The notes: generated from the letters alone by a model not told the origin. Numbered from the stretch's first letter, positions 1,086 to 9,603 are shown. The stretch: DNA of 54,153 bases from Alphaproteobacteria bacterium (GCA_031549365.1 JAVBPX010000006.1:1-54153), one strand, 5' to 3'. Numbers and translations are program-made.

Positions 1086-1161
<76 letters not shown>

Positions 1162-1338
1162 GGATTAACAATGCGAAGGCATTTTATATTCTTTTTTTTT
1201 AAAGTGCAAGTGTTTTATACGGTTTTTGAGTTTTGTGCGGGATTTGTTTTGGTTTTTATCTGAATTTTTTGGGATTTTTGTTTTATTTTGATTGGATTTG
1301 TGATATAATTAGTGGGTTAAAAATCATGGAGAGCAGAG

Positions 1339-2664
1339 TTGAAAACCAAAGTTATTTATATTTCCGGTGGGGCCAAATTTTCCGAGGCTGAAATTAATGC
1401 TGTGTTTACAGAAATTCGTCAGCAAATGGGTTGGGATGACGTTGTGTTATTTGGTGTTCCAATGGATGATCCGGTGGAATTTAATTCCGATAGGGGTACT
1501 TTGGATGTTGGGCAAGAGATTTTGAACCAAGTTCAGACTGACGATGTGATTGAAGGGGCAATTTCGGGAAAATGGGCACAGAATAACCCAATCGAGGATG
1601 ATGTTTTGATGAATGAGCCGCTGGTGGACGCGGTTTGTGCGGCGACCATTGTTGATGATGAAATTGTTGATGTTTCATGCGAAGCAATTAAGGCGGATGA
1701 AGTTATTGAAGTAGTTGCGGATAAAGTGGATGAGATTGCCGCACCAGTAGAGTTGAGCCGCAATGACAATAATATTGAGGCGGAAGAAGCGTCTGTAAAT
1801 ATAGCGCCGATATTGAGTGTTTTGGGTGCTGTTAAGAATATTAGTGAAGTGGTTGTTGAAAATAATGCGGATATTGCAAGGGCAACGGAATTGGTTCGCA
1901 ATGATAATATTGACGAGATTTCAGAAGAATTAGATGATGAAAAATCATTGGTTGCGGCAATTTTTAATGTCGATGAAAATGTTGAGAGTGTTACACAAGC
2001 AGAATTGATTCGTAATGACAATAATTTAGAGAATGTTGAAGTTTCAGTTACTTTGGTGCCGATTTTAGATAATGAGGGGGGCGAGGTTTCTGTAACATCT
2101 GAGATGGTTTCAGAGGATGAAGATGAAGTAATTTCCATTGCATCAACCCCAGTTGATTCAGATGAAAATTCAGAAGTGGCTGATGTGCTTATTGTAAAAC
2201 CGATTGATCTTGATCATGATCCGTTTTGTTTTGGCGATGCTTCGACGTTATCATTTGATCAGAATGGTGCGGATTTAAATTGTCCAACAGCGCCAGAAAT
2301 CGAAGATGAAGAGGATGAAGAAATATTTTCAGTTAAATCATCTTTTACGATAGAAGATATTTTGCCGACAGTGCCAGGATTGACCGAAGAAAAACCGCAA
2401 GATGCAACTTTGCAAGAATTGGCGCAACAGTTCAGCGAGCACAAGTCGGACGAGCCGATTGATTCTGTGGATAAGCCGTCCGGGTTTTCCAAGCTGCGTC
2501 AGATGTTATTTTTGAAAAAAAATGATAGCGAAACAGAAACAAAAACAAAGACCAAGGCAAAGAAAAAAGAGCCTATGTTTGGTTTGTTGGATTTAATTGA
2601 TCAAGCTGATGATGATGTGGATTCTTTTGATTTGCCAAAGTTTTTAAGGCCGGGCGCAGTATGA
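1339..2664 (+). CDS. Acidic, largely disordered protein with FtsZ C-domain-like N-terminus and FtsZ-like C-terminal peptide (no GTPase domain)
   Basis: TTG start with GGAG SD; N-term VIYISGG..EI..IR..VLFG; D/E-rich linker; C-term DSFDLPKFLR. Confidence 0.6.
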   Translation: MKTKVIYISGGAKFSEAEINAVFTEIRQQMGWDDVVLFGVPMDDPVEFNSDRGTLDVGQEILNQVQTDDVIEGAISGKWAQNNPIEDDVLMNEPLVDAVCAATIVDDEIVDVSCEAIKADEVIEVVADKVDEIAAPVELSRNDNNIEAEEASVNIAPILSVLGAVKNISEVVVENNADIARATELVRNDNIDEISEELDDEKSLVAAIFNVDENVESVTQAELIRNDNNLENVEVSVTLVPILDNEGGEVSVTSEMVSEDEDEVISIASTPVDSDENSEVADVLIVKPIDLDHDPFCFGDASTLSFDQNGADLNCPTAPEIEDEEDEEIFSVKSSFTIEDILPTVPGLTEEKPQDATLQELAQQFSEHKSDEPIDSVDKPSGFSKLRQMLFLKKNDSETETKTKTKAKKKEPMFGLLDLIDQADDDVDSFDLPKFLRPGAV

Positions 2665-3725
2665 AGAAAATTATCGCGGGCGCATTTCTGATTTTTTTTG
2701 GGGCTTCGGGTGCGTTTGCGGTTTCTGATTTTGAAATATTACAGAGATTAAATGATTCAGGGATGCCGGCGACGCTAATTTCAACACCGAATGGAGATGT
2801 TTTTCGCGTTTTGGATACCACTTGTTTTGCGTACAGTATTCGTAATTTTATTGATTTCGCACAGGATATTTTATATTTTATAACAGCATTATTATTGTTT
2901 GGTTGGGGGATTTCTGCGATTCGTGGGTCCAAGATTGATTGGATTGAAAATACAAGAAATTTGTTTTTAATATTTGCCGTGGCTACATCAATTAATCCGA
3001 TTATGTCTGTGATTTATGGTGGGCAGGAAATTCATGAAATTGTTTGTCCGACGATTGATGTGCCGGCGGATTCTGTGCGGATGGCTTTGAATGGACGTGC
3101 GGTTTTAAACATGCCAAAAGTTGTTGAAGAATTGGTTGTTGAACGTGGAGCGGAACAGGAAGTTTATACGCGTTCGGATGGTCAAACGTCGTTAATGTTA
3201 ACTGGGCCGGATTATGATCCCGCGCTGGTTTTATCGATGAAATCGGATACAACATTTAGGCGCGCGATGGATATTGTTGCGCGTTTAGAAGGTGGATATG
3301 CAAATAATCGCGCTGATCGTGGTGGACGTACAAATTTTGGTATTACTGAACGATCGTATGGGGCGGATGAAGTTAATAATATGACAAAAGATCGTGCGGA
3401 ATATTTAATGTATAGAGATTTTTATCGAGTGCGTGGAATTGATACCTTGCCCGATACAATTCGGGATGTCGCGTTTGATATGTCCGTTAATTCTGGGCCT
3501 GGGGCTGCTGTTATCAGTTTGCAAAAAGTTTTGGGTGTGTCCCAAACGGGCAAGGTTGATGATGCAACATTAAGTGCGGTAAATAATTACAGGGGGGATT
3601 TGCGCGATGCTTATTTGCAAGAACGCGTTGATAAATACAATCGCATTATTAAAAATAATCCCAGTCAGGAAGTGTTTAAAAAGTCTTGGATGAGGCGAAT
3701 TGATGCATTGAAAAATGCAGCGTAA
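2661..3725 (+). CDS. Membrane-anchored glycoside hydrolase family 108 lysozyme with PG-binding domain
   Basis: EGGYANNRADRGGRTNFGIT GH108 motif, FDMSVNSG, C-terminal F..SW.RRI; signal peptide and two TM segments; ATGA overlap with upstream gene. Confidence 0.85.
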   Translation: MKKIIAGAFLIFFGASGAFAVSDFEILQRLNDSGMPATLISTPNGDVFRVLDTTCFAYSIRNFIDFAQDILYFITALLLFGWGISAIRGSKIDWIENTRNLFLIFAVATSINPIMSVIYGGQEIHEIVCPTIDVPADSVRMALNGRAVLNMPKVVEELVVERGAEQEVYTRSDGQTSLMLTGPDYDPALVLSMKSDTTFRRAMDIVARLEGGYANNRADRGGRTNFGITERSYGADEVNNMTKDRAEYLMYRDFYRVRGIDTLPDTIRDVAFDMSVNSGPGAAVISLQKVLGVSQTGKVDDATLSAVNNYRGDLRDAYLQERVDKYNRIIKNNPSQEVFKKSWMRRIDALKNAA

Positions 3726-4157
3726 TTAATTCATAAAATATGTTTCTGTATAATTAATTAAATCAATAACGTATGTTTTGATGTATGTTGCTGTTTTTTC
3801 GGCAGCCAGGCCATCTGTCATGGATCCGCATTTTGGATAGCATTCATCAGGACCATTATAAATATTTATTGAAGCAGCGGCGGTTTTATTGGCCAAATCG
3901 ATTAAATCGCGTTTCATCTGTTTTGCGGATGATTTGTAATAAGTATCAATTAATCGGCCAGCCACACGGATATAGCAATTTGTTTTTGTGTTGGTTGATG
4001 CCGTCATATTTGATTGGGAAAAATCGATATCCATTGATTGTTCGGATTCCATATCGCAACCATTTAAATCATTACGGTATTTTGATACATCGACATTTGC
4101 GTTTGCGGACGCAATTGTCCCAAATATTAATGAAAATGAAATAATCCATGGTTTCAT
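3726..4157 (-). CDS. Secreted hypothetical protein (Cys-containing)
   Basis: Signal peptide MKPWIISFSLIFGTIASANA; start likely ATG 4157. Confidence 0.6.
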   Translation of the reverse strand: MKPWIISFSLIFGTIASANANVDVSKYRNDLNGCDMESEQSMDIDFSQSNMTASTNTKTNCYIRVAGRLIDTYYKSSAKQMKRDLIDLANKTAAASINIYNGPDECYPKCGSMTDGLAAEKTATYIKTYVIDLINYTETYFMN

Positions 4158-4224
4158 TTTGTTCACCAGTTTTTTTATGTGTTTTGATTCTAGCACAATT
4201 TGAAAATAAACGAAAGGAGTTTAT

Positions 4225-5625
4225 ATGAGTAAAAATATTTTAACAATGTATCGCATGGCGAAACAGCAACGTGCCGTTTGGGATAAACGTTGGGATGATT
4301 GTCAACGATATACAATACCAATGAGAGATGATGAAAGTGCAAGTTTATTTGATGCAACTGCCGCGGATGCGGTTGATATGTTGGCTGCATCATTATTTTC
4401 ATTGATGACGCCGCCGGAAAGTTTTTGGGTGTCGTTGACGTCGGCAGATTCTGAAATTAATGTCGATTTCACTCGTTCAGAAAATGCAATACGAAATCAT
4501 TTAAATCAATCAAATTTTTATACCGAAATTCATCAGTGTTATTTGGATTTGGCGATTTTGGGGACTGCATGTTTATACATGAGGGAAGCCCCAATTGGTG
4601 CAGAATCTGCATTCCAATTCCAAGCAATTCCGATGAAAAATGTTTATGTTAACCGCGATTCTGTTGGCGATGTTTCATCTGTGTTCTATGTTTGTTCAAT
4701 GACATCAGATGATGTTGTTAATACGTATTCGGATTGGGATATATCCGATAATTTTGCAACCAAATTTAAAGAAAATCCAGATGCGCATGTGTCAATTGTT
4801 CAATCAATAGTTCGGAATGATTCTGGATATTCGTATGTTGCATTTATTGATTCCGAAAATGATAATTTTGAATCGTGTATTTTATCGCGTGGACAATTTG
4901 TTAAAAATCCATTTTTGATTTTTCGTTGGTCTGCAATGTCGGGTGAAGTTTACGGACGGTCGCCTGTGATGCGGGCGTTGCCAGATATTAAAACTGCGAA
5001 CAAAGTTGTTGAATTGGTTTTGAAAAATGCAACGATTGCGGTTTCTGGTATTTGGCAGGCGGATGATGATGGTGTTTTAAATTTATCAAATGTTCAATTA
5101 ACGCCAGGTGCAATTATCCCCAAGGCTGTTGGGTCGGCTGGTTTGACTCCGTTGCGCGCAGGGGCCGATTTTGATGTGTCGCAATTGATATTAGAAGATT
5201 TACGTGCGCGTATTCGTCATGCTTTGTTGGCGGATCGTTTGTCGATTATGTCGGACAAAGTTATGACCGCCACAGAAATCATAGCGCGAAATACCGATAT
5301 GATGAGAATCTTGGGTGCAACATATGGGCGGATGTTAAATGAATTTATTCGGCCGATGATTGATCGAGGGATGTATATTTTGGCCCGTCGTGGATTAATA
5401 GATCCTGTTATGTTGGATCGTGGTGTTATGACATTGCGCTATGTCGCGCCGATTGCGCGATTGGCTAGCGATGAACAGGCAAATCAAGTTTTATCATGGG
5501 TTAATACAATGGATGTTTTGGGAGTGTCTGGTTCTGTTGATAAATCGGCAACTGTTAAATGGTTGGCGAATGCGTTGCATATTCCAAACGAATTAATAGT
5601 GGTGGATGAAAATGGAATTGCGTAG
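4225..5625 (+). CDS. Phage portal / head-tail connector protein (T7/BPP-1 Bbp21-like)
   Basis: FDATA, SNFYTEIH, GTACL, RW..GEVYGRSP..ALPDIK, MTATEI motifs of podoviral portals; AAGGAG SD. Confidence 0.88.
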   Translation: MSKNILTMYRMAKQQRAVWDKRWDDCQRYTIPMRDDESASLFDATAADAVDMLAASLFSLMTPPESFWVSLTSADSEINVDFTRSENAIRNHLNQSNFYTEIHQCYLDLAILGTACLYMREAPIGAESAFQFQAIPMKNVYVNRDSVGDVSSVFYVCSMTSDDVVNTYSDWDISDNFATKFKENPDAHVSIVQSIVRNDSGYSYVAFIDSENDNFESCILSRGQFVKNPFLIFRWSAMSGEVYGRSPVMRALPDIKTANKVVELVLKNATIAVSGIWQADDDGVLNLSNVQLTPGAIIPKAVGSAGLTPLRAGADFDVSQLILEDLRARIRHALLADRLSIMSDKVMTATEIIARNTDMMRILGATYGRMLNEFIRPMIDRGMYILARRGLIDPVMLDRGVMTLRYVAPIARLASDEQANQVLSWVNTMDVLGVSGSVDKSATVKWLANALHIPNELIVVDENGIA

Positions 5626-5815
5626 TGTTGAATTGGCCGCCGCGAGATGTTTTGAATCGCGAGAAGGGGCAATAGTATTAAATCATTTGCGCTCCATTAC
5701 ATTTGGGCGTGTTTTGGGCGTAAATGCAACCGAGGCAGAGTTGCGGAGTTTGGAAGCGCAACGTTTGTTTGTAAGGCAGATTGATGGATTAATTGGGAGA
5801 GGAAAAAACGTTTGA
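5612..5815 (+). CDS. Small phage protein (Bbp19-like) following the portal
   Basis: F.S.EG..VL..LR...LG.....EL...E.QR..V..I pattern; overlaps portal 3' end. Confidence 0.65.
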   Translation: MELRSVELAAARCFESREGAIVLNHLRSITFGRVLGVNATEAELRSLEAQRLFVRQIDGLIGRGKNV

Positions 5816-5902
5816 AAAACTTGTTTTCATTCATTCTATTTTGAAACGTTTTATGGCTTGATTTTTATCAGGCAAGGAATATGGAATTAATTTTTAGCCT
5901 GT

Positions 5903-6589
5903 TTAACGGGATAATAAATCGTGGATGTTATTTTTGAATTCTGTGGCGCCTCCGTTTGCCGGGTGACGAACACGTGTAACAGTATATCCCATTCCTGTCA
6001 AAGTTTCATGCGCAATGCGGCCAACCGCCACCACGGTGGCGTTTGGAAACAGATTTAGGAATTCGACCAATAAATGTTTGCCAGATTCTACTTCGTCATC
6101 TGTTGGTGTTCGGTTCGTTAGTGTGTCGCCAGGTTTATGTGGATGAAAGGCGAATGTATTCCAATGCAGCCAAGAAGTTGGTGTTGGCATTAATGATAGC
6201 ATTGTTTTCCAAACAATTGATCCGGTGGGTTCACAAAATCCGCCGGATACCAATGCTGGTTTTCCCGCCGCTGCCAATTTGGTTGGGCATGATGTGCGGC
6301 ATGGTTCGGAATCAAAAAAATAGCATGATGGCATTGTTTTAAATAAACGTTCGGATGTCATGGCGATGCCGCTGAAATGACCGCCTTGGTAGCCCAGAGC
6401 TTCCGCCACCAGGATAAATTTTGCATCACGGCGAGCAATTAAATAGTTATATAGATTTTCACTGCGTTTTACTGCTGCATCAGCCCCGATATCCCATTGA
6501 TTATCAGATTCTGACCAAGGGTTAAAGATGTTTTGGCGGTGGTATTTTTGCAAATTGGTTATGAATGATTTTACTTTATTTTCAAACAC
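5903..6589 (-). CDS. Uracil-DNA glycosylase superfamily protein
   Basis: AEALGYQGGHFSGIAMTSE, WN.FAFHPH, NRTPT, VAVGR, RHPANGG motifs. Confidence 0.85.
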   Translation of the reverse strand: MFENKVKSFITNLQKYHRQNIFNPWSESDNQWDIGADAAVKRSENLYNYLIARRDAKFILVAEALGYQGGHFSGIAMTSERLFKTMPSCYFFDSEPCRTSCPTKLAAAGKPALVSGGFCEPTGSIVWKTMLSLMPTPTSWLHWNTFAFHPHKPGDTLTNRTPTDDEVESGKHLLVEFLNLFPNATVVAVGRIAHETLTGMGYTVTRVRHPANGGATEFKNNIHDLLSR

Positions 6590-6613
6590 GTTGAAGGCCT
6601 CTGATTTATTTTT

Positions 6614-6638
6614 AGATTCTGAAATAAATTCAGGATGA
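6614..6638. repeat. REP-like palindrome (GATTCTGAAATAAATTCAGGATGA)
   Basis: Sister copy at 45328-45351 and degenerate in-frame copy at 1516-1542. Confidence 0.6.
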
Positions 6639-6661
6639 TTAATGGTAATCTTTTGATTTTA

Positions 6662-6736
6662 TGGCGCACCCAAGAGGATTCGAACCTCTATCCCGGCCTC
6701 CGGAGGGCCGTGCTCTATCCATTAAACTATGGGTGC
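6662..6736 (-). tRNA. tRNA-Arg (CCG)
   Basis: GCACCCA acceptor, CGGCC-CT-CCG-GA-GGCCG anticodon arm, GGTTCGAATCC, CCA. Confidence 0.96.
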
Positions 6737-6823
6737 GAACTGTTGCAGTTTATATATTTTTTAAAAAATTTCAATATTATTTAATTTTTATGGTTTTTTG
6801 TATTTTGTTCATTTGGATGATAT

Positions 6824-6851
6824 CTTGAAATTTTGGTATTTGCAACTATGT
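6824..6851 (+). promoter_or_regulatory. Putative RpoH (sigma32) promoter of clpB
   Basis: CTTG-N17-ACTATGT, close to the alphaproteobacterial CTTG-N17-CYTATNT consensus. Confidence 0.5.
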
Positions 6852-6936
6852 TGATTGGGAAAATAATCCAAATGATGTCGGGATGATTTTATGTTATCAT
6901 TATGGGTGTTGTTTGGGCAAAAGATGAGGTTTGAAG

Positions 6937-9477
6937 ATGGTTGATATTGAAAAGTTTTCAGAAGCGTCACAGCGTGCATTGGCAACAGCGCAACAAATTG
7001 CGGTTGCTAGGAAAAATCCAGTTGTATCGCGCGGGCATTTAATGCGAGCAATTTTGGATGATGAAACGGGTGTGATTGCAAATGTTATTGATTTTGCGGG
7101 CGGTGATTTAATTTCTTTGGATCGTGAGGTTGATGAACTATTTGCCAAGGAACCAACGGTTTCGGGGTCGAATGTGTCGCCCACTTTTTCCGAACAGGTT
7201 ATTGAAGTTTTAAATAATGCCCAGGGATATGCGCGTGCCACGCACGAGGATTATGTTACGGTTGAACGTATTTTTCAGGCCCTGATTAATGCGGGTATTG
7301 GACGTAAATCCAATTTGACAGCCAATGGGGTCGATGCGGCATTAGTGCGTGCGAGGGATGGGGTGGATATTTCGTCCCCAAATGCCGAGGACAAATATCA
7401 AGCATTGAAAAAATACACGACTGATTTTACGGATTTGGCGGCCAAGGGTAAATTAGATCCTGTTATTGGGCGAGATGAAGAAATTCGACGCACAATTCAA
7501 GTATTATCACGTCGTACAAAAAATAATCCTGTGTTAATTGGAAATGCGGGTGTTGGTAAAACAGCCATAGTCGAAGGTATGGCGCATCGGATTATTTCAG
7601 GTGATGTTCCAGAAAATTTATTGCGTAAACGTTTGTTATCGTTGGATTTGGGCGGATTGTTGGCAGGGGCCAAATATCGTGGCGATTTCGAAGAGCGTTT
7701 AAAGGGTGTTTTAAAAGCTGTCAAAGATTCAGGTGGTCAGATTATTTTATTCATTGACGAATTACATACCATGGTTGGTGCGGGCAAGGCCGAAGGGTCA
7801 ATGGATGCCGGCAATTTATTAAAGCCGATGTTGGCCCGTGGAGAATTACACTGTTTGGGGGCAACCACATTGGATGAATATCGCGAACATATTGAAAAAG
7901 ATCCCGCATTGGCGCGCCGTTTTCAGCCTGTGTATGTTGATGAACCCACGGTGGATGATACGATTTCAATTTTGCGCGGGTTAAAGGAAAAGTACGAAGG
8001 ACATCATGGGGTTCGTATTGCCGATAATGCGTTGGTGGCTGCTGTTCGTTTGTCCGATCGTTATATTACCGACAGATTTTTGCCAGACAAGGCGATTGAT
8101 TTAATTGACGAAGCTGCCGCACGTGTTCGTATTGAAATTTCGTCCAAGCCGGAAAAATTGGATGAAGTTGATCGTCGTTTAATGCAATTGAAAATCGAAC
8201 GAGAATCTTTGAAGCAAGAAAAGGATGAAGAATCCAAAAAACGTTTAAAAGATTTGGAAAAAACTCTGGCGGATGTCGAGGCTCAATCAAATACTATGAC
8301 CAAGGCATGGCGGGCGGAACAGGAAAAAATGCATGGATTATCGCATGCGATAGAAGAATTGGATTCAGTTAAGGCCGAGATGCTGTCTGCGATGCGGTCT
8401 GGGGATTTTGAACGGGCCGGGGCTCTGCAATACGGCAAGATTCCAGAGTTGGAAGCCAAAATCAAAGAATTGGAAAAAAACAAAGACGCGGCGAAAGACT
8501 ATAAAACCGTTAATTCCGATCATGTGGCGGCAATTGTTTCGAAATGGACTGGGGTTCCTGTTCAAAAGTTGGCTTTGGCGGAACAAACGAAATTGTTGGA
8601 TATTGAAAAAGATTTGTCCAATCGGGTTGTTGGTCAAGAACATGCATTGGACGTTGTTGCACGTGCAATTCGTCGTTCCCGTGCTGGATTGTCAGATCCG
8701 CGCCGACCACAGGGTTCATTTATGTTTTTAGGGCCGACAGGTGTTGGTAAAACCGAATTGGTGAAATCATTGGCGGATTTATTATTTAATGATGATAATG
8801 CCATGGTTCGGATTGATATGTCAGAATATATGGAACAACATTCTGTTGCGCGTTTAATCGGATCGCCCCCTGGGTATGTTGGATATGATCAGGGCGGAAT
8901 ATTGACCGAGGCCGTTCGTCGCAGACCATACCAAGTTGTTTTGTTTGACGAGGTTGAAAAAGCTCATCCAGATGTATTCAATGTTTTATTACAGGTATTG
9001 GATGATGGGCGTTTGACCGACAGTCATGGGCGTGTTGTTAATTTTTCGAATACAATAATTATCATGACCAGTAATTTAGGATCCGATATTTTATTGGAAA
9101 ATCCGACGGCAGATGATTTGGTGATGGAGCGTGTTCGCAAACATTTCAGACCGGAATTTTTAAACAGAATTGATGAAATTGTTATGTTTCGTCCATTAAC
9201 ACCTGCCGTTATGGGATCAATTGTAAAAATTCAATTGGATAGATTGAATAAACGCTTGGCAGATCGTCAGTTATCATTACATGTATCCGATCGTGCGATT
9301 GAATGGTTGGCGGATAATGGGTTTGACGCCCAATATGGCGCGCGTCCATTGAAGCGATTAATTATGTCCGAGGTGGAAGACAAAGTTGCTGATTTAATTT
9401 TAATGGGCAAGACGAAAGAGGGACAGGAGATAGTGGTGGATGTGGATAAGAAGAGTAAGACATTAAAAATCAGCTAA
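6937..9477 (+). CDS. clpB: ATP-dependent chaperone ClpB
   Basis: Two AAA+ modules ([16 protein letters not shown]), coiled-coil middle domain, GARPLKR. Confidence 0.97.
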
Positions 9478-9603
9478 AACATTTGAAAATGCGCGCTACG
9501 GCGCGTTTTTTCATTTTTTCGCGGGGTCACGTATGTCTATATATGCTCTGCCCGCTGAAAAAATGAAAAGAACCCACCGGATCATCACATTTTGAAATGT
9601 TTT
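9476..9603 (+). repeat. Long palindromic element (RPE1-like core) containing the clpB terminator
   Basis: Terminator gcgc-gctacg-gcgc plus U-tract, core cacgtatgtctatatatgct, right arm complementary to left arm. Confidence 0.7.

Follow-up and report, generated by a model that had tools for sequence, protein, structure and literature searches.

What becomes of cell division when a bacterium keeps only the far end of its ftsZ gene? FtsZ is a near-universal organiser of bacterial division, and its essential job, whether force, treadmilling-guided wall synthesis or scaffolding, is debated. The question is raised by a locus at positions 1,339 to 3,725 of a 54,153-nucleotide stretch of alphaproteobacterial DNA (GCA_031549365.1 JAVBPX010000006.1:1-54153), which was analysed at its full length and is called the window here; it is a complete contig of a 911-kb genome (15 contigs, 97.6% complete). 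The locus holds two genes on the plus strand. The first, here called the remnant, is very probably a truncated orthologue of ftsZ at the ancestral locus, and the second, the partner, encodes a predicted membrane-anchored peptidoglycan hydrolase with a GH108 domain. A sequence-only reading had described a GTPase-less FtsZ-like gene whose stop codon overlaps the ATG of a GH108 gene, and the open reading frame (ORF; 1339-2664), the ATGA overlap and the Pfam matches bear this out. Our favoured explanation overall, to which we give a probability of about 0.55, is that the remnant is a truncated ftsZ descendant that still serves division as a non-polymerising hub. The parts of the gene are as follows.

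1339..2664, plus strand: FtsZ remnant, very probably a truncated ftsZ orthologue without the GTPase domain, 441 amino acids
1328..1331, plus strand: Shine-Dalgarno-like GGAG, 7 nt before the TTG start, read from the sequence
1339..1470, plus strand: N-terminal module, residues 1-44, a homologue of a single strand-helix-strand within the FtsZ C-terminal domain
1474..2553, plus strand: acidic linker, predicted disordered, residues 46-405, 360 amino acids, net charge -68
1804..1827, plus strand: conserved linker motif APILSVLG, residues 156-163, with I158, L159, S160 and L162 invariant or nearly so
2344-2394, plus strand: conserved linker motif, residues 336-352, from alignment conservation
2401-2442, plus strand: conserved linker motif, residues 355-368, from conservation, with a predicted helix
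2482..2520, plus strand: basic-hydrophobic motif GFSKLRQMLFLKK, residues 382-394, counterpart of the family's GKIGKLKNILPFKK
2572..2661, plus strand: C-terminal block, residues 412-441, with the FtsZ-type tail ending in DSFDLPKFLRPGAV, from the tail motif and conservation
2661..2664, plus strand: ATGA overlap from remnant to partner, with TGA at 2662-2664 over ATG at 2661-2663

The reading frame starts with the TTG at 1339, consistent with the invariant M1-K2-K4 (an M-K-T/A-K beginning) in family alignments. Both termini are as the sequence-only reading had them; the linker is 360 rather than about 370 residues long. The retained N-terminal element is presumably S8-H10-S9 in the naming of the FtsZ structure literature, and GFSKLRQMLFLKK is a possible candidate for an amphipathic membrane- or partner-binding element. 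The linker contains an internal repeat, ELxRNDN at residues 141 and 225, and partly because of it the remnant is about 100 residues longer than most of its relatives. The two copies read ELSRNDNN...APILSVLG (from residue 141; window 1759-1827) and ELIRNDNN...LVPILDNEGG (from residue 225; window 2011-2088).

Relatives of the remnant in public genome records come from Candidatus Enterousia and from Alphaproteobacteria known as metagenome-assembled genomes (MAGs) from animal guts. Passages of a genome paper on the group assign Enterousia to the order Rs-D84 and describe genomes below 1 Mb and a probably partner-dependent lifestyle (PMC12306168). We sampled 301 genomes of this order, made up of 271 from the window's own family, 29 from other families and the window's genome itself. 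The FtsZ C-terminal domain (FtsZ_C, PF12327) is present in 25 of the 29 genomes of other families (3/4, 17/19, 0/1, 2/2 and 3/3 per family) and in 0 of the 271 genomes of the window's family. A profile of the remnant matches 264 of those 271 genomes plus the window's genome, spread over at least 16 genera, and none of the 29; no sampled genome has both FtsZ_C and the remnant. FtsZ_C was likewise found in 0 of the 201 genomes of a separate family-only sample, 179 of them at least 90% complete, and as a control the search detected the domain in 13 of 14 reference genomes. The window's genome has no FtsZ_C match and no match to Tubulin (PF00091) at E<=1. Its 10,565 six-frame ORFs of at least 40 amino acids gave a best E of 1.7 in an unfiltered hmmsearch with the order's own FtsZ hidden Markov model (HMM), and a best E of 0.21 in phmmer with the degenerate FtsZ of genome G021, which is described below. 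The proposed check for a full-length ftsZ elsewhere in this 97.6% complete genome came back empty, and the suggestion of a split FtsZ falls with it, as neither the Pfam Tubulin and FtsZ_C searches nor the unfiltered search with the order's FtsZ profile found a GTPase half in the genome.

The place of the remnant on the chromosome is that of ftsZ. Four features of the window serve as actual or possible synteny anchors.

1086..1161, minus strand: tRNA-Phe(GAA), found by ARAGORN, divergent from the remnant; ancestral anchor upstream
4225-5625, plus strand: T7-like portal, Pfam Head-tail_con E 9e-101; anchor downstream
5606-5815, plus strand: Bbp19-like gene, Pfam Phage_Bbp19 E 4.6e-7; anchor downstream
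6662..6736, minus strand: tRNA-Arg(CCG), a possible further anchor; the same tRNA lies downstream of ftsZ and the portal in G020

Eight sister-family loci with a full-length ftsZ were examined. In five of them tRNA-Phe is the immediate upstream neighbour of ftsZ, divergent in G022, G026 and G019, which is the arrangement of the window, and on the same strand in G020 and G024; in G029 a few genes separate the two. A homologue of the partner follows ftsZ in G022 and G027, with 4-nt overlaps, and in G026, and is one gene away in G023. In G020, G029 and G024 the next gene after ftsZ is the T7-like portal; in G022 and G026 the partner comes between the two. The gene order of the sister families is tRNA-Phe, ftsZ, small membrane partner and T7-like portal, and the window and G003 share it. 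In the closest relative found, G003, the remnant has the same tRNA-Phe upstream and a GH108 partner. Since the neighbours on either side are the same, the remnant sits in the ftsZ slot; it occupies the ftsZ locus of close relatives and is the sole such gene in its genome, as expected of an orthologue by descent. Only 177 nt separate the remnant start from tRNA-Phe, and there is therefore no room upstream for a GTPase half, just as the sequence-only reading had it.

The sequence of the remnant resembles that of sister FtsZs at both ends. When 15 remnants were compared with six sister FtsZs by hhalign, a single match was obtained (E 3.3e-4, probability 38%, 48 columns), which places remnant residues 1-48 onto residues 272-320 of the FtsZ of G019, inside its C-domain. 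A 28-sequence profile of the N-terminus aligned end to end, over 46 columns, with a 50-residue segment of eight sister FtsZs (probability 95.4%, P 1.7e-8, a P-value without search-space correction for a segment that was picked from the first alignment). A 50-column N-terminal profile searched against the six-frame translation of the G019 genome had its top match inside ftsZ, at the correct place (E 1.4e-5). Conversely, the sister FtsZ segment profile picked the remnant as top match in G005, G015 and G003, three of five own-family genomes (E 0.004-0.023). At the other end of the protein, the tail motif [DE][ILVM]P.[FYW][LFI][RK] was found within the last 15 residues of only one of 4786 six-frame ORFs of at least 60 amino acids, and that ORF is the remnant. 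By eye, sister FtsZ linkers carry a basic-hydrophobic motif, a hydrophobic-acidic stretch (LMDL in G022) and an I-P-x-F tail in the same order. The synteny, the complementary phyletic pattern and these profile matches are the reasons for regarding the remnant as an FtsZ relic, one of the options that the sequence-only reading had named.

With canonical alphaproteobacterial FtsZ the remnant shares its locus and neighbours, one strand-helix-strand from the C-domain, the long acidic linker and, at its end, a peptide of the D-[IL]-P-x-F-L-[RK] type. Unlike canonical FtsZ, it has no tubulin-type GTPase domain with its glycine-rich loop (PF00091), and of the 95 positions of the FtsZ C-domain (PF12327) only about 46 columns align, roughly the second half minus the last strand. 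Because the GTPase domain and half of the C-domain are absent, the remnant is not expected to bind GTP, polymerise or treadmill. Of the two domains that define the FtsZ family it thus lacks one and has the other only in part, yet by locus and sequence it is an FtsZ descendant.

Purifying selection is strong at the two ends of the remnant. The first 50 residues show 76% mean column identity in 28 sequences, five further short motifs are conserved in one order across relatives, and the linker alignment is otherwise highly variable. Median pairwise ratios of nonsynonymous to synonymous change (dN/dS) were calculated by NG86 for 400 random pairs among 79 relatives and are about 0.10 for the N-terminal 45 codons, about 0.05 for the C-terminal 42 codons and about 0.42 for the linker; these are rough figures, with dS near saturation and the linker value inflated by unreliable alignment. 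The gene pair and both termini are conserved in relatives, a point that the sequence-only reading had asked about. AlphaFold2 gave a low mean confidence (pLDDT 47 with 15 sequences and 51 with 87) and, for most of the linker, values below 50. Values of 64-88 were obtained over blocks in residues 1-40, with a helix at 16-30, about 75-78 for a helix at 355/356-368, and about 72 for the tail, which has a short helix at 434-436 in the 87-sequence model; a helix at 383-392 appeared in the first model only. The models contain no strand, no globular domain and no packing of the N-terminal element on a linker motif, in keeping with half a domain that depends on a partner or on a second copy of itself.

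A possible intermediate is found in G021, the only sampled genome of another family, in which neither FtsZ_C nor the remnant was found and the partner is present. Its locus consists of tRNA-Phe, a 408-amino-acid ORF (L127:5522-6745, minus strand), the partner, the portal and a Bbp19-like gene. An alignment of the ORF with sister FtsZ spans 227 columns (probability 93%, E 2.8e-7); in place of the glycine-rich loop of its sisters the ORF has a shorter, non-glycine stretch, and it matches neither Tubulin nor FtsZ_C in Pfam at E<=10. This degenerate FtsZ resembles the remnant in its locus, in belonging to the same order of bacteria and in having lost the GTP-binding signature; it retains the full two-domain layout that is deleted in the window's gene. 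For a tree of the order, ClpB was dropped as a marker, as with the window's query it was found only in the own family, and RpoB was used instead. The quick IQ-TREE analysis (LG+C20, SH-aLRT) included 26 of the order's genomes, with 14 other Alphaproteobacteria serving as outgroup, and omitted G003, G018 and G011, whose RpoB is split or partial, and G010 and G030, which had no match. The tree has two clades, one with two canonical-ftsZ families and the other with two more families, G021 and the window's family, in which the window's genome is basal. G021 groups as the sister of the window's family (SH-aLRT 96); its branch is very long (2.22), which makes the placement unsure. If this placement holds, the partner would have been gained beside ftsZ, after which the GTPase would have decayed and the decayed part would have been deleted.

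Besides the near saturation of dS and the long branch of G021, a number of results weigh against this reading. The N-terminal profile had no correctly placed match in four of five sister genomes (none in G020 and G022, a non-FtsZ match in G023 and a shifted match within ftsZ in G026, E 0.024), and the sister segment profile failed to pick the remnant in the window's genome and in G013. At the other end, hhalign of the C-terminal block against sister FtsZ ends was weak (P 0.029, 23 columns, at the very termini), and the C-terminal profile had no match on ftsZ in five sister genomes. Most tails of the family read F[SAT][IM]PGFF, without a basic residue; that residue is present in the window's gene, in G003 and in most sister FtsZs. 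Pfam found nothing in the remnant protein at E<=1, the order's full FtsZ HMM did not match it at E<=10, and PDB searches with profiles of the entire family and of its 50 N-terminal columns found no FtsZ at E<=10, the best matches being unrelated (E 0.26 or worse). The remnant was not found in 7 of the 271 own-family genomes, including G007 and the single-contig 0.7-Mb G041, and given these genomes it may be dispensable. Three of the listed remnant matches carry an in-frame stop. Finally, ZapA is reported to hold FtsZ by its N-terminal tail and at the subunit junction (PMC12216130, PMC12754632), and the remnant has neither.

The partner was checked in five of the seven genomes in which the remnant was not found, and it is also missing in four of them. 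In G041 and G007 the searches run gave no match for FtsZ_C, the remnant or the partner module, and complete loss of the gene pair may have occurred in some of the smallest genomes.

The partner gene has the following parts.

2661..3725, plus strand: partner, predicted membrane-anchored peptidoglycan hydrolase, 354 amino acids, from Pfam and hydropathy
2661-2720, plus strand: signal peptide, from hydropathy
2721-2867, plus strand: small domain with Cys55
2868-2921, plus strand: first transmembrane helix, from hydropathy
2922-2960, plus strand: basic loop
2961-3023, plus strand: second transmembrane helix, from hydropathy, with Cys129 after it
3270-3497, plus strand: GH108 domain (Glyco_hydro_108, PF05838), residues 204-279
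3507-3698, plus strand: PG_binding_3, E 8.3e-7, above the Pfam cut-off

It has three hydrophobic segments, and its membership of PF05838 is clear (E 1.6e-17, 64.2 bits against a cut-off of 21.2; the G003 orthologue has E 7.7e-18). The sequence contains an EGGY-type stretch, which we take to be the active-site mark of GH108. The N-terminal module consists of a signal peptide, which Enterousia lacks, a domain of 45 residues and two membrane helices around a short basic loop; it is conserved in the window's family and three other families, with two invariant cysteines, one on either outer side. Its topology suggests that both flanks are periplasmic, perhaps disulfide-linked, which would leave about 13 residues on the cytoplasmic side. 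The enzyme at the C-terminus differs between lineages: it is GH108 in the window and G003, Peptidase_M23 in one MAG, VgrG3-like in G026 and a domain without Pfam match in Enterousia, and it is absent from short forms. The partner's C-terminal half matches the two Pfam families of the GH108/PG_binding_3 phage-type muramidases, both above their cut-offs; unlike these enzymes, it is fused to a signal peptide, a small domain and a two-helix membrane module and lies in the putative ftsZ operon. Of 80 public loci, 78 have an ORF close behind the remnant, mostly no more than about 20 nt away, and the remaining two are cut by contig ends; in most relatives the two genes do not overlap and are 2-20 nt apart. 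Since the partner is coupled to full-length ftsZ in sister families, the pairing is older than the truncation, and it speaks for an ftsZ operon and not for a new lysozyme adaptor. The remnant may recruit the hydrolase, as the sequence-only reading had proposed; the partner's conserved parts are apparently periplasmic, and it offers only a 13-residue cytoplasmic loop. The alternative idea of a decoy can be set aside, as no FtsZ polymer remains to be antagonised.

Several other division genes persist. In the window's genome an FtsI-like penicillin-binding protein (PBP), FtsQ and FtsA are encoded in one cluster, and two SEDS proteins, MreB and ZapA are also encoded. FtsA has the actin-like fold and the SHS2 (1C) insert (PF14450 E 5.1e-17, PF02491 E 2.1e-11), and it matches TIGR01174 with E 2.1e-49, but at 166.6 bits it is below the curated cut-off of 175.85. 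The gene (G000:C8:67413-69281; L104:910-2778, plus strand) is fused in frame at its C-terminus to ribulose-phosphate 3-epimerase (Rpe; Pfam E 8e-47, residues 412-604), with a basic-hydrophobic stretch between the halves. The same fusion is seen in all ten FtsA genes fetched from other genera of the family, whereas sister-family FtsAs, at 409-420 amino acids, end after a short basic-hydrophobic stretch; the fusion is thus found in the same clade as the ftsZ truncation. ZapA is present in 17 of 18 own-family relatives and 11 of 12 relatives of other families. In 77 of 79 public loci (L017-L096, Enterousia-type genomes) zapA lies divergently 183-323 nt upstream of the remnant; it is not beside the remnant in the window, where ZapA is at G000:C10:22785-23033, or in G003, and both of these keep the ancestral tRNA-Phe. 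A type IV secretion coupling protein (T4SS-DNA_transf E 7.6e-49, TraG-D_C; G000:C8:62263-64410, minus strand; L192:3264-5411) is encoded beside the ftsI-ftsQ-ftsA cluster.

In the explanation that we favour, about 270 5' codons of ftsZ would have been lost in the common ancestor of one Rs-D84 family, that of Candidatus Enterousia and its kin. With these codons the GTPase/polymerisation domain would have disappeared entirely, as would the first half of the C-terminal domain, leaving the strand-helix-strand element, the long acidic disordered linker with its few conserved motifs, and the C-terminal docking peptide. The product, presumably unable to bind GTP or polymerise, would work in division as a disordered multivalent hub, its tail docking on FtsA, here fused to Rpe, and the N-terminal half-domain and linker motifs binding other partners, or each other, to provide the multivalency. 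Without polymerising, it would probably modulate septal wall enzymes. The C-terminal peptide of FtsZ binds membrane anchors such as FtsA, and in Caulobacter the FtsZ linker is reported to influence cell-wall metabolism (both bioRxiv 10.1101/632075); as the remnant has kept the linker and the C-terminal peptide, it probably still docks FtsA and modulates wall enzymes. We put an FtsA-docking division hub at slightly below even odds. The remnant and the membrane-anchored hydrolase may be made from one transcript, and FtsA, FtsQ, MreB and wall synthesis of the FtsW/FtsI type may drive constriction, in the manner of other FtsZ-less bacteria.

The neighbourhood of the locus allows a different use of the gene pair. 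Both in the window and in sister genomes the portal and Bbp19-like genes are the neighbours on the downstream side, and the remnant and hydrolase might serve this phage-derived gene set, which has been retained across the order, as a module by which a domesticated particle achieves lysis, release or penetration of the envelope. GH108 together with PG_binding_3 is, we assume, a typical phage-lysin make-up, the enzyme domain of the partner has been swapped between lineages (GH108, M23, VgrG3-like or none), and the G027 partner has a weak match to TrbC/VirB2 pilin (E 4.3e-5, below cut-off), all of which would suit such a module. We consider it unlikely, given that the partner is coupled to full-length ftsZ by the 4-nt overlaps in G022 and G027, that the remnant pairs divergently with zapA and not with the portal in most of the family, and that the parts of FtsZ retained are those that dock division proteins. 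Less likely still is a decaying leftover without protein function, kept as a leader ORF for expression of the hydrolase. The ATGA overlap, a protein most of which is predicted to be disordered and evolves fast, the 7 of 271 genomes without a detected remnant and the few copies with in-frame stops speak for it; most relatives, however, have no overlap, the dN/dS of both ends is 0.05-0.10, there are invariant residues over at least 16 genera and five conserved motifs in one order, and a leader ORF has no need of a 280-440-residue product.

The failed searches also bear on whether the remnant descends from ftsZ at all. A disordered protein unrelated to FtsZ could have replaced ftsZ at the locus and resemble it by chance or convergence, which would account for the lack of Pfam or PDB sequence matches, for the several profile searches that failed and for the shortness of the matching stretches (45 and about 20 residues). 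It would have to have taken the same locus and orientation with the same neighbours on both sides, to have two collinear matches at the right ends and a linker architecture that by eye is like that of sister FtsZ, and to follow a distribution perfectly complementary to that of FtsZ_C; the possible intermediate at the same locus in G021 is a further difficulty, and we regard this account as very improbable. That a full-length ftsZ exists and was missed, through an assembly gap, binning loss or another genetic code, seems more improbable again. The window's genome is a 15-contig draft, but FtsZ_C is absent from all 271 own-family genomes, a sample that includes 1-5-contig assemblies, as well as from the genome itself; the control was positive in 13 of 14 reference genomes; within its 54-kb contig the remnant begins 177 nt from a tRNA gene; and a DNA contig of run X1 spans 1127-9500 without a difference. 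A truncated ftsZ that continues to serve division remains the explanation that we prefer.

Downstream of the partner the gene order is a small minus-strand ORF, the portal, the Bbp19-like gene, a UDG-like gene, tRNA-Arg(CCG) and clpB. The small ORF (156 amino acids, 3726-4196, minus strand) is convergent to the partner gene and has a hydrophobic N-terminus and no Pfam family above cut-off. An RNA-library contig of run X2, which belongs to the study that probably also supplied the window's source run, is identical to 3927-4161, inside this ORF. Another contig of the same run is identical to 1372-1572, at a depth of about 4, and the rest of the gene pair is uncovered; it is no proof of transcription or of an operon, and DNA carry-over cannot be excluded. 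A scan for promoters and terminators found sites no more numerous than in shuffled sequence. With the window's ClpB (6931-9477) as query, matches at E<=1e-50 were obtained in 15 of 18 own-family relatives and 0 of 12 sister-family genomes, and several of the own-family matches begin near residue 153 and look N-terminally shorter. Five of the six families in this order of reduced genomes have the T7-like portal beside the ftsZ locus (L108, L109, L110, L111, L112, L127), a Bbp19-like gene accompanies it in the window and G021, and more phage-like ORFs occur near sister loci; the genes of the portal region look like a long-kept, perhaps domesticated, phage-derived set. Elsewhere, on the 12.6-kb contig G219:C39, a 353-amino-acid ORF (L125:5004-6062, plus strand) follows terminase-like and portal-like ORFs, and its C-terminal part, which contains ANIIFGVALDSSLDDEMVVTVVATGFG, matches positions 54-94 of FtsZ_C (E 9.9e-9). 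This second FtsZ_C match was set aside as an intermediate; on its short contig the ORF appears to be a phage-like protein with a fragment of the FtsZ C-domain.

Other bacteria provide two comparisons. In Hyphomicrobiales there are truncated FtsZ paralogues that have the GTPase domain but neither linker nor tail. The remnant keeps the linker and tail, has lost the GTPase and is the sole ftsZ-derived gene of its genome, which makes it their mirror image. According to the paper describing them, the Hyphomicrobiales proteins (e.g., Agrobacterium tumefaciens FtsZ1) are duplicates beside a canonical FtsZ, found through a GTPase-domain search, and like the remnant they are shortened FtsZ derivatives kept by selection, linked there to regulation of septal wall synthesis (PMC13732431). 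The literature searched, with supplements and the 2023 Enterousia paper outside its scope, contains no report of FtsZ loss or of such a remnant in Rs-D84 or Enterousia. The second comparison is with Chlamydiae and most Planctomycetes, which divide without FtsZ. They are like the present family in having no FtsZ GTPase and in retaining MreB, SEDS/PBP pairs and FtsQ-type proteins. Neither group is known to keep an ftsZ-derived gene; here the tail and linker of FtsZ survive under selection together with FtsA and ZapA. A term search of the genome paper on the group found that 'ftsZ' and 'cell division' do not occur in it (PMC12306168).

We tentatively suggest, with slightly more doubt than attaches to the hub itself, that a whole family of gut Alphaproteobacteria, with at least 16 genera and hundreds of species-level genomes, divides without a tubulin-like polymer and uses the linker and tail of FtsZ as a free-standing hub for FtsA, ZapA and septal wall enzymes. 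On this view the fusion of FtsA to Rpe, an oligomeric enzyme, and the move of zapA to the side of the remnant gene in the family would belong to the same picture. If so, a clade of Proteobacteria would join the few bacteria known to lack FtsZ, and one would have to ask how these small-genome gut bacteria divide. If true, the step that preceded deletion would be represented by G021 with its degenerate full-length FtsZ, and the hub function of FtsZ would be separable from its GTPase motor and would have outlived it. With the GTPase deleted and the linker and tail kept alongside FtsA, ZapA, FtsQ and FtsW/FtsI-type proteins, the lineage would amount to a natural separation-of-function experiment, one that would show which parts of FtsZ are dispensable and which are not and that offers concrete proteins for testing.

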